A stretch of 64,000 bases of DNA from Escherichia coli (GTDB lineage Bacteria > Pseudomonadota > Gammaproteobacteria > Enterobacterales > Enterobacteriaceae): the NCBI RefSeq assembly GCF_013315695.1, contig NZ_CP054353.1. The stretch is one strand, 5' to 3'. The notes below the pieces were generated by a model. The model saw only the letters and a program-made list of their open reading frames with translations. It searched no databases and was not told where the DNA came from. Shown here in pieces: positions 22,690-30,899 of the stretch. The position numbers were made by a program, and so were the translations under genes. The first letter of the stretch is position 1; each line of letters opens with the position of its first letter.

Positions 22690-22930
22690 TGGTTACCAGA
22701 ATCAGGGCAGTCTTAGGAGTGGCGGCATATAGCCAAAATAACGTGAGCGGGTCCATGCCCGACAGAATCGTTACTCTCTCCCATCCGGACTCTAACCGTC
22801 GGCCCCGGAATTACACCGGATCTGCTGTCCTTTGAGTTCGCACCCAAAGCGCTCGCGGGCTTTCAACTGAGTTGATTTACCGCCGGTGGGGAATTTCGCC
22901 CCGCCCTGAGAATAAGCGGATTCACTATAA
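22690..22930 (-). ncRNA. sroG: FMN riboswitch (RFN element) in the ribB leader
   Basis: minus-strand sequence AGGGCGGGGCGAAATTCCCCACCGGCGG ... GGATGGGAGAGAGTAACG matches RFN conserved blocks; bounds approximate. Confidence 0.7.
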
Positions 22931-23338: not shown

Positions 23339-23372
23339 AGCAACACAAAAACGGGCCAGACGGCCCGTAATA

Positions 23373-23573: not shown

Positions 23574-23841
23574 AAGCACATCCTCCGGTTATCGCATACC
23601 TTTTAAGGCCATATGCTTTTTCTGATTTCAGTATTCACCAATCAGTGTAGTGCCTTTAAACATAACGTGCGTAAATATATTGTCCCCGATCACACTTTTT
23701 AGTGAAAAATAAAAAACCATATTAAAAGACTTTCTCTTCCAGAACTTCTCTAACATGTGTTATTATTAACAAAGATAAATGTAAGCAAGGAAACTATCAT
23801 AAAGTAAATATTGCGTCACTAAATGGACATTGGAGTGACAT

Positions 23842-24471
23842 ATGATTTTATTCGCCGACTATAACACCCCTTATCTTTTCGCTATTTCCTTTGTACTGTT
23901 GATCGGCCTTTTAGAAATTTTTGCGCTTATCTGCGGTCACATGCTCTCCGGTGCACTTGATGCACATCTTGACCATTATGATTCCATAACCACAGGTCAT
24001 ATTAGCCAGGCACTTCATTATCTCAATATCGGAAGATTGCCAGCTCTCGTCGTTCTTTGCTTACTGGCTGGTTTTTTTGGTCTTATTGGCATCCTGTTGC
24101 AGCATACCTGCATCATGGTCTGGCAATCACCACTCTCGAACCTGTTTGTGGTTCCTGTCAGTTTACTGTTTACGATTATTGCGGTGCATTATACCGGTAA
24201 AATAGTTGCGCCCTGGATTCCACGCGATCATAGCTCAGCTATTACAGAAGAAGAATATATTGGTAGCATGGCGTTAATTACCGGTCATCAAGCCACTTCA
24301 GGTAATCCCTACGAAGGAAAACTCACCGATCAATTTGGCCAAATACATTATTTACTACTGGAGCCTGAAGAAGGAAAAATTTTCACTAAAGGAGACAAAG
24401 TGTTAATTATTTGCCGACTTTCTGCAACTCGATATTTGGCGGAAAACAATCCCTGGCCCCAAATATTGTAA
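23842..24471 (+). CDS. yqiJ: NfeD-like inner membrane protein YqiJ
   Basis: 209 aa membrane ORF with C-terminal OB-like domain. Confidence 0.8.
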
Positions 24472-24497
24472 TTTATTAATCAAAAGGAAATTTAATA

Positions 24498-26159
24498 ATG
24501 GATGATATTGTTAATTCTGTGCCCTCCTGGATGTTTACCGCGATTATTGCCGTATGCATTCTGTTTATTATTGGAATTATTTTCGCCAGGCTCTATCGTC
24601 GCGCTTCGGCAGAGCAAGCTTTTGTTCGTACTGGTTTAGGTGGGCAAAAAGTGGTAATGAGCGGTGGCGCAATCGTGATGCCGATCTTTCATGAAATAAT
24701 CCCCATCAATATGAATACTCTGAAGCTGGAAGTCAGCCGCTCAACCATTGATAGCCTGATTACGAAAGATCGTATGCGCGTCGATGTCGTTGTCGCTTTC
24801 TTTGTGCGGGTAAAACCGTCAGTGGAAGGTATTGCCACCGCCGCCCAGACGCTGGGGCAACGCACCCTGTCGCCTGAAGACTTACGTATGTTGGTTGAAG
24901 ATAAATTTGTCGATGCCCTCCGTGCAACAGCTGCACAAATGACCATGCATGAGTTACAGGATACCCGCGAGAACTTCGTGCAGGGCGTACAAAATACCGT
25001 TGCTGAAGATCTGTCGAAAAACGGCCTGGAACTGGAAAGCGTTTCACTTACCAACTTTAACCAGACGTCGAAAGAACATTTCAATCCTAACAACGCCTTT
25101 GACGCCGAAGGTTTAACCAAGCTGACGCAGGAGACGGAGCGCCGTCGTCGCGAACGTAACGAAGTTGAACAGGATGTAGAAGTTGCGGTGCGTGAGAAAA
25201 ACCGTGATGCGCTTTCGCGGAAGCTGGAGATTGAACAGCAAGAAGCGTTTATGACGCTTGAGCAGGAGCAGCAGGTTAAAACCCGTACCGCTGAGCAGAA
25301 TGCGAAAATTGCGGCTTTTGAAGCTGAACGTCGTCGTGAAGCAGAGCAGACGCGAATTCTGGCTGAACGACAGATTCAGGAAACAGAAATCGACCGCGAA
25401 CAGGCCGTCCGCTCAAGAAAAGTTGAAGCTGAACGTGAAGTTCGCATTAAAGAGATCGAACAACAGCAGGTCACCGAAATCGCCAACCAGACGAAATCGA
25501 TCGCTATTGCCGCCAAATCGGAACAGCAGTCACAAGCGGAAGCGCGTGCCAACCTTGCACTTGCAGAAGCGGTAAGCGCCCAGCAAAACGTAGAAACCAC
25601 TCGCCAGACCGCAGAAGCCGATCGTGCTAAACAAGTTGCCCTAATCGCTGCCGCGCAGGATGCAGAAACCAAAGCGGTTGAACTGACCGTGCGGGCGAAA
25701 GCAGAGAAAGAAGCCGCAGAGATGCAGGCGGCGGCGATCGTTGAGTTAGCCGAAGCAACACGCAAAAAAGGCCTGGCGGAAGCAGAAGCGCAACGTGCGC
25801 TGAACGACGCTATCAACGTACTTTCTGACGAGCAAACCAGCCTTAAATTCAAACTGGCCTTGTTGCAGGCGCTACCTGCGGTAATTGAGAAATCCGTGGA
25901 ACCAATGAAGTCCATTGACGGTATCAAGATTATTCAGGTCGATGGATTAAACCGAGGTGGTGCTGCGGGGGATGCGGCATCAGGCAGCGTTAGTGGCGGA
26001 AACCTGGCAGAACAGGCATTGTCTGCCGCCCTTTCTTACCGCACACAGGCACCGCTGATTGACTCCTTGCTCAATGAAATTGGCGTTTCAGGCGGCTCAC
26101 TGGCGGCATTGACTTCCCCCTTAACCTCAACAACTCCCGTCGAAGAAAAAACAGAGTAA
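24498..26159 (+). CDS. yqiK: SPFH/band-7 flotillin-like protein YqiK
   Basis: 553 aa; N-terminal TM, SPFH domain, long A/E/Q/R-rich coiled coil. Confidence 0.85.
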   Translation: MDDIVNSVPSWMFTAIIAVCILFIIGIIFARLYRRASAEQAFVRTGLGGQKVVMSGGAIVMPIFHEIIPINMNTLKLEVSRSTIDSLITKDRMRVDVVVAFFVRVKPSVEGIATAAQTLGQRTLSPEDLRMLVEDKFVDALRATAAQMTMHELQDTRENFVQGVQNTVAEDLSKNGLELESVSLTNFNQTSKEHFNPNNAFDAEGLTKLTQETERRRRERNEVEQDVEVAVREKNRDALSRKLEIEQQEAFMTLEQEQQVKTRTAEQNAKIAAFEAERRREAEQTRILAERQIQETEIDREQAVRSRKVEAEREVRIKEIEQQQVTEIANQTKSIAIAAKSEQQSQAEARANLALAEAVSAQQNVETTRQTAEADRAKQVALIAAAQDAETKAVELTVRAKAEKEAAEMQAAAIVELAEATRKKGLAEAEAQRALNDAINVLSDEQTSLKFKLALLQALPAVIEKSVEPMKSIDGIKIIQVDGLNRGGAAGDAASGSVSGGNLAEQALSAALSYRTQAPLIDSLLNEIGVSGGSLAALTSPLTSTTPVEEKTE

Positions 26160-26319
26160 ACCCTCTTCTATGAATAATCCCTGGCCCAAAAAGCCGGGGA
26201 TTTTTTATATCTGCGTTCCGCTAAAAAGTACAAATGTTCAGGTTGTTACAGCGTTTTTCGAGCCGACTCGGGGAAGAGAAAACTGCATAAGAGAAAGCAT
26301 TGCGCGGGGTCTGGCGCTC

Positions 26320-26480
26320 ATCAACAATCGGGGAGTCAGCAAGGGGCTGAAACGGGAAAGCCCCTCCCGAGGAAGGGGCCTTATAGAAGGAAAGGGTTAT
26401 GATGAAGTTCGTCATCATACTGGTTGTGTTGTTACTGTTAAGTTTCCCGACTTACTAACAACTCATCAGAGGGGGGAGAA
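26320..26480 (-). ncRNA. Sib-type antisense RNA (antitoxin) overlapping the ibs ORF; bounds approximate
   Basis: inferred from the ibs ORF and flanking GC hairpins (ggggct...agcccc, cccctcc...ggaagggg); K-12 carries sib/ibs loci between yqiK and hldE. Confidence 0.45.
26399..26458 (+). CDS. Ibs-family type I toxin (19 aa hydrophobic peptide MMKFVIILVVLLLLSFPTY)
   Basis: tiny ORF with AAGGAAAGGG RBS; peptide nearly identical to E. coli Ibs toxins. Confidence 0.65.
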   Translation: MMKFVIILVVLLLLSFPTY

Positions 26481-26577
26481 ATCCTCCCTTACCCTTGTTC
26501 CTTTACTTTAGGTTGAAAAAACAACAGCGTCAATAGGTCTATCCGGCACAACGCGAGAACTGTGAAGCGCTTTCCGG

Positions 26578-28058: not shown

Positions 28059-30899
28059 TCATTCTTCCACCAGCCACTTCTGCCAGCTTGCCCGCACCAG
28101 ATCACGCTCTGCGGTGAAGCAATCCTCCGACACATGGCCCGGCAATTCCTGTAATGCCAGATGATGAAGTTCATCGCGCAGCGTAGTGTAAGCACGGGTC
28201 AGCACCATCGCTTCCTGCTCTTCCATAATGTCGTTTTGCGCCAGCAGCTCCAGAATACGCACGTTGTCTGACCAGCGCGTTAACTTCGGTTTTTCATGAG
28301 CGTAGCGCAACACCAGATATTGGGTAATAAATTCGATATCGGTAATTCCGCCTTCATCGGCTTTGATATCAAAGCGATCGCGATGTTTATTGCCGAGATG
28401 AGCGCGCATTTTCTCGCGCATTTCCCGCACTTCCGTTTGCAGGGTTTTGCCTTCGCGCGGCAGCGTCATAATCTCCCGGCGTACTGCGTCAAAGTGCGCG
28501 GTGAGCTGCGGATCGCCGTACACTACACGCGCACGCACCAGCGCCTGATGCTCCCACGTCCAGGCCTCGTTTTTCTGATAATCAGCAAATGCTTCTGCGG
28601 ATGTCACCAGCATTCCCGCCGCCCCGGACGGACGCAGTCGAGCATCCACTTCATACAAAATGCCGGAAGAGGTTCGCGTACTGAACAGATGCATAATGCG
28701 TTGCGCCAGACGCAGATAAAACTGTCGCCCGTCGATTTCCCGCTCGCCGTCAGTCATCGCATCCATTGGGCAATCATGGAGGAAGATAAGGTCAAGATCG
28801 GAACTGTAGCCTAACTCCCAGCCGCCCAGCTTGCCGTAGCCGACCACCGCAAAACCACGGCCTTCGCGATCGTTGAGGTGATTTGGCTTACCGTAGCGGG
28901 CCACCATTTGAACCCACGCCTGCTGAACAACGGCGTCAATCATGGCTTCCGCCAGCCAGGTTAAGTGATCGCTCACTTTCATTACCGGCAGCGTACCGGC
29001 GATATCCGCTGCCGCAATGCGTAACAGTTGCGCCTGTTTGAACTGACGCAGCGCCTCAAGCTGTTGTTCTTCGTCATCTTCCGGCACGCGCAGCAAATAC
29101 TGGCGCAACTCATCACGGTAAGCATCGGTCGCCGTCGGCTGGTAGAGAGTGTTTGGATCGAGCAGTTCATCCAGCAATAACGGATAACGCGCCAGCTGGC
29201 TGGCAATCATCGGCGATGCGGCACACAGAGAAATCAAATGCTTAAGCGCCGCAGGAAATTCACTAAGCAATTCTAAATAGGTGGTGCGGGTAACAATCCC
29301 CACCAGCAAGGCCGTAATGCGCGACAGCGTGACAGCAGCGTCTTCACGTGTACAGACATCTCTTAGCAGATGTGGCATCAGATGGTCGAGCACCTGACGT
29401 CCGCGTGGCCCGATTGTGCGCTTATCCAGCTCTTTGCGGAAATCGGCAATCAGCGTCAGCACCTGTTTGCGATCGTCCTCGCTAAGATGCGCCAGCACTG
29501 GTGTAGTGTCATCTTCCTGCAACGCGTCCTGCCACAGCTCACGCCACTGTTCCGACAGCGACTCTTCCTGAGTTTCACTTTCGTCGTCGCCAATCAATTC
29601 ATTAAACACCCGGCGCACATTGGTCATATGTCCGGTCAGCGCCCCAGTCAGTTGCTGCCAGTCAGCAAAGTCCATCGCCCACGCCAGCCGCGCACGGTTA
29701 AGCTCATCAGAAGTAAGCGTCTGGGTTTGTTCGTCGTTAATGCTTTGCAGCAGGTTTTCCAGACGCCGCAGGAACAGATACGCCACTCGCAATTGTTCAG
29801 CATCGTTTTCAGAAAGCAGATGCAGCTCGGCAATAGCGCTGAGCGTTGGTAGTAAAGAGCGCGATTGCAGCGACGGCTCGCGCCCGCCGCGAATAAGCTG
29901 GAATACCTGGACGATAAATTCAATTTCACGAATGCCACCCGCGCCAAGTTTGATGTTGTCGGTCAAACCGCGCCGACGCACTTCACGGGCAATCATCCCT
30001 TTCATGTTGCGCAGCGACTGAATCACGCTGAAATCGATGTAACGACGGAAAACAAACGGGCGCAGCATCGCACGCAACTCGTTAGCATAGACGCCTTCGC
30101 TATCGCCCATAATCCGCGCCTTGACCATCGCGTAACGCTCCCAGTCGCGCCCCTGCTCCTGGTAATAATCTTCCAGTGCCGCAAAGCTCAGCACCAGCGG
30201 GCCACTTTCGCCAAACGGACGCAGTCGCATATCCACGCGATAGACGAAGCCATCCTGCGTTGGTTGATCCAGCACTTTAATCAGCCGCTGCCCCATGCGG
30301 GTAAAAAACTGGGCGTTATCCAGTTCCCGGCGTCCGCCCTGCGTACAACCATGTTCCGGCCAGGCAAAAATCAGATCGATATCTGATGAGAAATTCAGCT
30401 CCCCACCGCCCAGCTTACCCATGCCTAAAATCAGCAGCGGTTGCGCTTCGCCCTGCGCATTGCACGGCGTTCCCCATTCGCGGCAGCAGGCGTCATACAG
30501 CCAGTCACGCGCCGCAACAATCAGCGTCTCCGCCAGATGGCTGAGCTGCTGCAAAATGCTCTCTTCAGTAACCAATGCCAGCGTTTGCGCCCAGGCGATG
30601 CGCACCATAATGCGCCGCCGGAATAGCCGCAGCTCGCGCATTAACCCGGCTTCGTCACTCACATTACTGAGCGCCTCCTGCCACCATGCAGAGTAATGCT
30701 GCCATTCGTCGGCCTGCGGCGGTTGGCTTTCCAGTTCCGTCAGCCACTCTGGATGCGCAATCACGCTGTCCTGCACAAAATCACTGAAAGTAAGTACCGA
30801 CTTCGCCTGTGCGCTAAGTGATTCGTCGGCTAAAGGCTCTGGCAGCCGCTCAACAACGGTCTGCCAGTACTGCTGTAACGGTGAAGAGAGCGGCTTCAT
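28059..30899 (-). CDS. glnE: glutamine synthetase adenylyltransferase/deadenylase
   Basis: ORF 28059..30992; start placed at [12 protein letters not shown] (946 aa). Confidence 0.95.

Follow-up and report, generated by a model that had tools for sequence, protein, structure and literature searches.

The yqiJ-yqiK gene pair of Escherichia coli as a conserved flotillin and NfeD-like membrane module

The yqiJ-yqiK operon of Escherichia coli was described by Hinderhofer et al. in 2009 as an SPFH2/NfeD operon, together with nuclear magnetic resonance (NMR) chemical shifts for YqiJ (PMC2636767). YqiK itself is held in the membrane by an N-terminal helix, with the remainder of the protein in the cytoplasm (cited in PMC10434171). 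Among related systems, the solved flotillin complex has a wall of 44 parallel helices that stand side by side over 186 residues as a right-handed barrel. This wall is glued by clusters of charged residues and has been described as unlike classical coiled coils (PMC11260169). In Staphylococcus aureus, NfeD binds to and stabilises the flotillin oligomer, and eukaryotes have no NfeD partner (PMC11222466).

The locus analysed here occupies positions 23842-26159 of a stretch of 64,000 nucleotides (nt) of E. coli DNA (contig NZ_CP054353.1 of assembly GCF_013315695.1), which is referred to below as the window. The reading that is favoured, with a probability of roughly 0.75, is that yqiJK is a conserved two-gene membrane module in which YqiK would form a cage, with YqiJ as its partner.

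The yqiJK locus and its two proteins

Positions 23842-26159 correspond to the yqiJ-yqiK operon of the E. coli chromosome, a gene pair already described. A 3-kb query over both open reading frames (ORFs) showed 100% identity to the E. coli chromosome NZ_OZ547117.1, for which RefSeq gives the product names 'OB-fold-containing protein' (yqiJ) and 'flotillin family protein' (yqiK). In that chromosome ribB, ubiK and glgS lie to one side of the pair, with ibsE, hldE and glnE to the other. The gene identities and the limits of the interval had been proposed earlier from the letters alone (the sequence-only reading), and both were exact. The two genes are separated by 26 nt, and they were found at a coverage of at least 80% in 5389 of 5426 complete E. 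coli genomes (~99%). Matches to the yqiJK region also occur on a few dozen plasmid-labelled records, such as a 260-nt fragment of yqiJ (96.9% identity) at positions 28383-28644 of the 34-kb record NZ_JBSWBI010000004.1; plasmids may have picked up pieces of the chromosome in these cases, or the contigs may be mislabelled.

A scan of species representatives provided 36 loci with relatives of yqiK, from Enterobacteriaceae, Hafnia, Serratia, Erwinia, Buttiauxella, Cupriavidus, three species of Paraburkholderia and two Alphaproteobacteria. It is apparent that the association of the two genes is invariant in this set: in 36 of 36 loci, entero-, beta- and alphaproteobacterial, yqiK is preceded, at a distance of 17-81 nt, by a co-oriented ORF of the YqiJ family. 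No other flanking gene was common to the distant loci. The two-gene module proposed in the sequence-only reading is upheld, and it is self-contained. The G+C content of the pair is host-like everywhere (0.42-0.51 in E. coli and 0.57-0.68 in the others), so that recent transfer is not the explanation of the similarity.

The domain content of YqiK places it in the flotillin family. Matches to Band_7 and Flot far exceed the Pfam cut-offs (Table 1), and the SPFH (flotillin-like) assignment made earlier is thereby upheld. From the N-terminus, the protein consists of a membrane anchor, an SPFH domain, two charged helical segments that together comprise some 270 residues, and a Flot domain at the C-terminus. 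When the isolated SPFH domain was compared with 177,635 PDB sequences, only flotillin-1 (9bq2_B, E value 1.1e-4; 9l3g_A, E value ~1e-4) and, weakly, flotillin-2 were recovered. This result suggests, weakly in absolute terms, that the domain is nearer to the flotillins than to stomatin, prohibitin or HflK/C.

YqiJ gave Pfam matches to YqiJ_N and YqiJ_OB. An AlphaFold2 model was obtained from an alignment of 60 diverse family members, drawn from approximately 1000 representatives, and has a predicted local distance difference test (pLDDT) score of 91.9. The modelled protein has three predicted transmembrane helices (amino acids (aa) 6-31, 68-94 and 100-125), followed by an OB-fold barrel of the NfeD type. 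A Foldseek comparison of this model with 350,542 PDB chains placed three NfeD-type OB domains first, namely 2k5h (MTH693), 3wwv (the C-terminal domain of 1510-C, the stomatin operon partner of Pyrococcus horikoshii) and 2k14 (the soluble domain of the Bacillus subtilis NfeD protein YuaF). For these matches the probability was 1.00, the root-mean-square deviation 2.4-3.8 Å and the target TM-score 0.54-0.77, with marginal E values (1.4e-3 to 5.2e-3); generic OB folds (ribosomal S12, CspA) ranked below them.

For YqiJ itself the NfeD relationship is not detected by sequence in the searches performed. YqiJ had no match to Pfam NfeD (PF01957) at an E value of 1 or below, weak matches were obtained for just 2 of the 60 family members (best E value 3.8e-4), and the family profile reached no NfeD structure among the PDB sequences, neither YuaF nor PH1510. 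No protease family was matched in the 209-aa protein, including the ClpP-like serine-protease domain of the long NfeD (STOPP) proteins. The earlier description of YqiJ as NfeD-like is thus supported by the modelled fold and by operon position, and does not stand as a Pfam NfeD sequence match. Hinderhofer et al. came to the same view of YqiJ from the structure of the operon and the NMR chemical shifts of the C-terminus (PMC2636767).

The charged helix of YqiK and the putative cage

The A/E/Q/R/K-rich region was described in the sequence-only reading as the C-terminal half of YqiK, a location that is only approximate. It takes up 45% of the protein, from the middle towards the C-terminus (nt 25098-25847), and the composition is as claimed: these five residues account for 60-68% of each 50-aa block over aa 201-450 and for 62% of aa 206-470, compared with 29% on either side. 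The AlphaFold2 model confirms aa 201-450 as a predicted long charged helix.

Although of low complexity in composition, as had been noted, this helix does not show the weak constraint that the term implies. Comparison of yqiK with the K-12 gene revealed 82 synonymous and 6 non-synonymous codon differences, and YqiK is under strong purifying selection. Between E. coli and the Beta- and Alphaproteobacteria the helical region is 69-81% identical, compared with 32-39% for YqiJ in the same genomes. The identities of the helical region, the SPFH domain and YqiJ are, respectively, 97, 92 and 71% in Citrobacter youngae, 80-81, 77-81 and 32-35% in Paraburkholderia, and 69, 73-75 and 32-35% in Alphaproteobacteria. 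From these alignments, the helical region appears to be conserved about as much as the SPFH domain, or more.

The length of the helical region is also nearly constant. Among 27 species it changes only once, through an insertion of 11 residues at the same position in Cupriavidus and Serratia. The inserted residues (IEQQKVTQMAA or IEQSKVTEMAA; loci L019 and L025/L026, columns 329-339 of alignment A3) are a near-duplicate of the adjacent 11 residues. Numerous database variants of YqiK, of 527-575 aa, are known from E. coli, Shigella, E. albertii and Salmonella, and the recurrent ones are all in-frame insertions or deletions (indels) in the helical region, flanked by direct repeats of 5-8 nt, e.g. 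GCTGAACG and GCAGAGA. They comprise the addition of EQ, EQEQ or EQEQEQ at aa 254, the gain or loss of 13 aa (AERRREAEQTRIL), losses of 22 aa, of 9 aa (AEARANLAL) and of 26 aa, and gains of 5 or 10 aa (AEKEA). In a spread sample of complete E. coli genomes, the region was 750 nt long in 56 of 59 full-length matches and 749 nt long in the other three, and none of the 59 genomes carried an in-frame indel allele. The low-complexity DNA therefore produces slippage alleles, and selection holds the length fixed. A commonly strain-variable length of YqiK, and hence cage height, was considered and rejected on account of the rarity of length variants in this sample.

The periodicity of the helix was examined by a phase-class F-test on alignment-averaged hydrophobicity, for periods of 4-18 (45 tests, 2000 permutations). 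The sole significant integer period was 11, in aa 216-347, where the F value of 4.06 was matched by 0 of 2000 permutations (p < 0.0005), a result that holds after correction for the 45 tests. Fourier peaks of hydrophobicity at 10.7, 5.4, 2.75 and 2.2 residues are harmonics of 11, none of them above the shuffled maximum-power null; the phase-class F-test is regarded as the adequate one for this question. Large hydrophobic residues favour positions 1 and 6 of the 11-residue frame and so lie on more or less opposite sides of the helix, and oppositely charged residues are over-represented four positions apart (i,i+4; z = 3.6). Such a pattern is as expected for side-by-side helices that each have two neighbours in a right-handed wall.

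According to the view of flotillin oligomerisation held before 2022, the region would instead be a classical left-handed heptad coiled coil through which YqiK forms dimers or tetramers. It is indeed long, helical and Ala/Glu-rich, and helix 2 has a weak local peak near a period of 3.54 (aa 400-450). The heptad itself was not detected, however, with p = 0.35-0.44 for period 7 in aa 216-347 and in aa 216-450 and p = 0.10 in aa 348-450; nor did the band of 3.3-3.9 residues rise above shuffled controls anywhere in aa 201-450. Since period 11 alone is significant, and the helices of the solved flotillin are parallel, side by side and unlike classical coiled coils (PMC11260169), a heptad coiled coil is considered unlikely. 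Of the 'long charged coiled coil' originally suggested, the long charged helix survives, on the model and the composition, and the classical coiled coil is not supported. The 11-residue periodicity fits the helical barrel wall of the solved flotillin cages better, and by analogy with these the charged helix of YqiK would have the role of a barrel wall.

A second alternative is a single alpha-helix of the ER/K type, acting as a spacer that sets the distance between the SPFH and Flot domains and makes no specific lateral contacts. Spacers of this kind tolerate substitution, yet the residues of the YqiK helix are retained (97% between Escherichia and Citrobacter, ~80% to Paraburkholderia, at or above the level of the SPFH domain), its length is constant over the 27 species save for the one insertion, and indel alleles are rare. 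These properties make a spacer quite improbable, in spite of the excess of oppositely charged residues at spacings of i,i+4 (z = 3.6) and i,i+3 (z = 2.4), the missing heptad signal and the existence of rare in-frame alleles of many lengths, all of which speak in its favour.

The cage model for YqiK is based on analogy with the solved flotillin, HflK/C and prohibitin cages and with the FloA-NfeD pair of S. aureus. A homo-oligomer of YqiK would form a ring or cage on the cytoplasmic face of the inner membrane, with the SPFH domains on the membrane and the long helices parallel and side by side as the wall of a right-handed barrel. Ionic contacts between subunits and the two sparse hydrophobic stripes of the 11-residue repeat would hold this wall together, and the Flot domain would close the top of the cage. 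YqiJ, its three helices in an N-out/C-in topology, would face YqiK with its OB barrel on the cytoplasmic side; located in or at the enclosed patch of membrane, it may bind YqiK through this domain and stabilise the assembly. Such a module might mark off a microdomain of the membrane, or might sequester client membrane proteins or keep them stable, in circumstances other than those of standard laboratory culture, in which expression is very low.

A more specific proposal is put forward tentatively, at somewhat less than even odds. The charged helix would be a wall element constrained residue by residue and fixed in length, with an 11-residue register, in a right-handed homo-oligomeric barrel cage whose wall, at ~270 residues, would exceed in height that of eukaryotic flotillin (186 residues); and the extreme conservation across proteobacterial classes (70-80%, compared with 32-39% for YqiJ) would point to an important function, specific to certain conditions, that has escaped the standard phenotyping of E. 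coli.

Several observations weigh against the cage reading. Full-length YqiK, a profile of 27 species and the C-terminal 154 aa reached no flotillin among the PDB sequences, and a score of 88.7 bits on the NCBIfam FloT equivalog model (NF058507), for which the cut-off is 700, makes YqiK a member of the flotillin family and not a FloT equivalog. The AlphaFold2 monomer, for which the input was a 27-sequence alignment at 69-98% identity, is poor (mean pLDDT 57.8, below 50 in the SPFH domain), and Foldseek returned only noise with it (E values of 5 or above). The oligomer or cage is proposed by analogy, and the contact between YqiJ and YqiK is drawn from operon structure and from other species. 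The period-11 signal is seen only in helix 1, in a single family alignment, and the 11-residue indel that supports it represents a single insertion site. E. coli yqiK deletion mutants have no growth, biofilm or stress phenotype (PMC10434171, PMC2636767), in accord with the earlier remark that the physiological role is poorly defined.

Some lineages, moreover, carry a frameshifted yqiJ. The 120-aa database proteins P0119 and P0120, from E. coli including O145:H28, follow the YqiJ sequence to aa 78 and then enter the +1 frame exactly at the T7 run of yqiJ; P0119 occurs on 573 contigs. Their departure from frame at this run indicates that yqiJ is frameshifted in some lineages in which yqiK is intact.

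Table 1. Coordinates of yqiJK, of the domains of its products and of adjoining features in the window
Feature	Position	Strand	Basis or remarks
glgS-yqiJ intergenic region	23580-23841		AT-rich, presumed yqiJK promoter region; 262 nt; G+C content 0.34-0.35
yqiJ	23842-24471	+	209 aa; short NfeD-like inner-membrane protein; ORF, RefSeq yqiJ, Pfam YqiJ_N and YqiJ_OB, AlphaFold2 model
YqiJ predicted membrane part (aa 8-115)	23863-24186	+	Pfam YqiJ_N; AlphaFold2 model
T7 homopolymer run in yqiJ	24072-24078	+	Frameshift site in alleles of other E. coli strains
YqiJ C-terminal OB-fold beta-barrel (aa 139-202)	24256-24447	+	Predicted NfeD-type partner-binding domain; Pfam YqiJ_OB, model strands aa 143-202
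yqiK	24498-26159	+	553 aa; bacterial flotillin; ORF, RefSeq yqiK, Pfam
YqiK N-terminal hydrophobic membrane anchor (aa 10-39)	24525-24614	+	Model helix 10-39; hydrophobic sequence
YqiK SPFH/Band 7 domain (aa 39-192)	24612-25073	+	PF01145, E value 1.9e-18, 67.6 bits, cut-off 23.6
YqiK predicted long charged helix 1 (aa 203-336)	25104-25505	+	11-residue hydrophobic periodicity; AlphaFold2, pLDDT 70-86
YqiK predicted long charged helix 2 (aa 351-471)	25548-25910	+	Ala/Glu-rich, runs into Flot domain; AlphaFold2, pLDDT 66-80
YqiK Flot domain (aa 406-530)	25713-26087	+	PF15975, E value 3.4e-40, 137.4 bits, cut-off 27
Antisense shadow ORF, 143 aa	24689-25120	-	Not a gene; same frame as the 183-aa ORF; ORF list, codon shuffles
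Antisense shadow ORF, 183 aa	25376-25927	-	Not a gene; ORF list, codon shuffles
Intrinsic-terminator-like hairpin and T-run	26176-26202	+	10-bp stem; 17 nt past the yqiK stop codon
Sib antitoxin RNA	26384-26533	-	142 bits; overlaps ibsE; adjoins the module but is not part of it
ibsE	26399-26458	+	RefSeq annotation

DNA-level features and neighbouring sequences

The sequence-only reading had also suspected that the DNA of the charged region, though repetitive, is not a true repeat array, and that codon periodicity gives rise to long spurious antisense ORFs. Both suspicions proved correct. Tandem Repeats Finder returned no rows, even at a score of 30, autocorrelation revealed no lag that stands out beyond the 3-nt codon period, and the sole notable direct repeat was a 14-nt pair (TTGAAGCTGAACGT) at 25318 and 25423. 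The number of 8-mer self-matches, 34, was the highest among the 801-nt tiles of the window (23 in the next), and codon shuffles gave 22 ± 7. Since the search for tandem repeats was empty, the only period is that of the codon, and shuffles reproduce the k-mer excess, the low complexity of the DNA is attributable to codon usage and not to a repeat array.

The same holds for the antisense strand. The frame that contains both antisense ORFs (Table 1) has 5 stops across the whole of yqiK. In the charged region its longest open stretch is 156 codons, compared with 118 ± 29 in codon shuffles, of which 10.6% reach the observed value, and neither ORF has a Pfam match. In GC-rich relatives the antisense counterparts are 591-887 aa in length (887 in Reyranella), increasing with G+C content. 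In three loci (L031, 3278-5485; L038, 3326-5989; L023, 3977-5752; all on the minus strand) the shadow ORF is longer than yqiK itself, and such ORFs are likely to give rise to annotation errors in those genomes.

The case for a true repeat array in the DNA, or for an antisense gene, would draw on the top rank in 8-mer self-similarity, on the very existence of ORFs of 183 and 143 aa, and on the substitutions relative to K-12 in the antisense frame, which are mostly synonymous (28:2). The ratio is uninformative, however, because the antisense frame has the wobble positions of yqiK, whose own ratio is 30:0, and for the same reason it cannot serve to dismiss the antisense ORFs. Codon shuffles yield both the k-mer excess and the open frame, and the boundaries of the ORFs vary among taxa. 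With the empty repeat search and the missing Pfam matches, these results leave an array or antisense gene with a barely perceptible probability; the antisense ORFs and the repetitiveness of the DNA are by-products of the GAA/CAG/GCN/CGT/AAA-rich codons of the helix. They also provide a caution for genome scans: genes for charged helices yield long, seemingly conserved antisense ORFs, which synonymous/non-synonymous counts cannot dismiss.

With regard to expression, ribosome-binding sites can be read in the sequence before both genes, GGAG at 8 nt before the ATG of yqiJ and AGGA at ~10 nt before that of yqiK. There was no plus-strand match to the sigma-70 consensus in the 262-nt region upstream of yqiJ. 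This fits the low native expression that has been reported, YqiK being barely detectable in E. coli (PMC10434171; PMC6788730), and general stress does not induce the protein (PMC2636767, PMC10434171). A 19-nt direct repeat with 17/19 matches (AAYAATCCCTGGCCC...) links positions 24445-24463, at the 3' end of yqiJ, where it encodes NNPWPQ, and 26173-26191, in the left arm of the yqiK terminator; it may be due to chance. The AAYAATCCCTGGCCC motif also opens each sib repeat unit of K-12 (L002, 8332 and 8713). On the minus strand at 22769-22917, upstream of ribB, there is a flavin mononucleotide riboswitch (Rfam RF00050, 120.9 bits), conserved in related enterobacterial loci.

As had been stated earlier, the module lies directly next to an ibs/sib toxin locus: one Sib RNA, overlapping ibsE, is found ~225 nt downstream of yqiK (Table 1). 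The window has one sib/ibs unit (26160-26577), and two tandem units of ~375-400 nt each are present in K-12 (L002, 8319-9112), E. albertii and Escherichia sp. E1V33. A single unit adjoins yqiK in Citrobacter, Kluyvera, Phytobacter, Klebsiella spallanzanii and Kosakonia. Proximity, and its recurrence in Escherichia and these five genera, would be the grounds for tying yqiJK functionally to the type I toxin-antitoxin locus, or for regarding it as a defence or stress island in its own right. No Sib adjoins yqiK, however, in Pseudocitrobacter, Entomohabitans, Intestinirhabdus, Hafnia or Erwinia, none of the flanks recurs in the beta- and alphaproteobacterial loci, the number of Sib copies (1 or 2) bears no relation to yqiJK, and the terminator lies between yqiK and Sib. 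PADLOC, moreover, found no defence-system match for YqiJ or YqiK. A functional tie or defence role is accordingly very improbable, and the adjacency is one of local synteny.

Comparison with described systems

The result for yqiJK chiefly confirms the existing annotation. Worth keeping are the conservation of the residues of the helix together with its fixed length, the register of 11 and not 7 residues, and the marked difference between the two proteins in the rate at which they have evolved. Although YqiK lacks a laboratory phenotype and its expression is very low, its sequence is very tightly constrained, including a stretch that resembles filler. This combination makes yqiJK a reasonable bacterial model for the purpose of flotillin cages, and for the part of wall length and the 11-residue register in cage assembly.

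The closest system is the operon of E. coli K-12 (b3050-b3051, the SPFH2a/NfeD2 operon of Hinderhofer et al. 2009), with the same gene set, order and lengths (209 and 553 aa), with glgS upstream and sib/ibs and hldE downstream. The allele in the window differs from that of K-12, with a nucleotide identity of 94.2% for yqiK and 97.2% for the hldE flank and with changes that are nearly all synonymous, and K-12 has two sib/ibs units where the window has one. The yqiGHI fimbrial genes upstream of glgS are found in K-12, where yqiG (interrupted by IS2), yqiH and yqiI directly precede glgS (L002, 1-5489); in the window ubiK abuts glgS (23339-23372) and the fimbrial cluster is absent. The yqiK allele of the window is uncommon: in the helical region, 36 of 5423 matching records have at least 99% identity to it, and most have 94.5%. 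The 3' tail of the gene (25848-26159) is 88.8% identical to K-12, compared with 97.2% for hldE and 96.6% for glnE, which suggests divergent classes of allele, or recombination at the 3' end.

The yuaF-floT operon (NfeD2 and FloT) of B. subtilis resembles yqiJK in having a short NfeD gene directly upstream of a flotillin with an SPFH domain, a long EA-rich helix and a Flot domain, and the OB domain of YuaF (2k14) is among the top three structural matches of YqiJ. It differs in sequence, YqiK remaining at 88.7 bits on the FloT model with its cut-off of 700 and YqiJ having only ~12% identity to YuaF over the barrel.

The eukaryotic flotillins 1 and 2 (PDB 9BQ2, 9L3G) are the only PDB sequences matched by the SPFH domain of YqiK, and they share with it the order of SPFH domain, long charged helices and C-terminal domain. 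Their membrane attachment is through lipidation and a hairpin, and they assemble into a hetero-44-mer with the 186-residue wall; YqiK has, by contrast, a transmembrane anchor, no paralogous partner in its operon, ~270 helical residues and an NfeD partner.

The archaeal stomatin PH1511 with its NfeD/STOPP partner PH1510, and FloA-NfeD of S. aureus, are similar to yqiJK in the pairing of an SPFH gene with an NfeD gene, and in the C-terminal OB barrel as the partner-binding module. The C-terminal domain of PH1510 (3wwv) was the second-best structural match of YqiJ, with a target TM-score of 0.77. PH1510, however, is a long NfeD with a serine-protease domain, whereas YqiJ, at 209 aa, would consist of membrane helices and barrel only, and FloA of S. 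aureus belongs to a different and shorter SPFH subfamily than YqiK.

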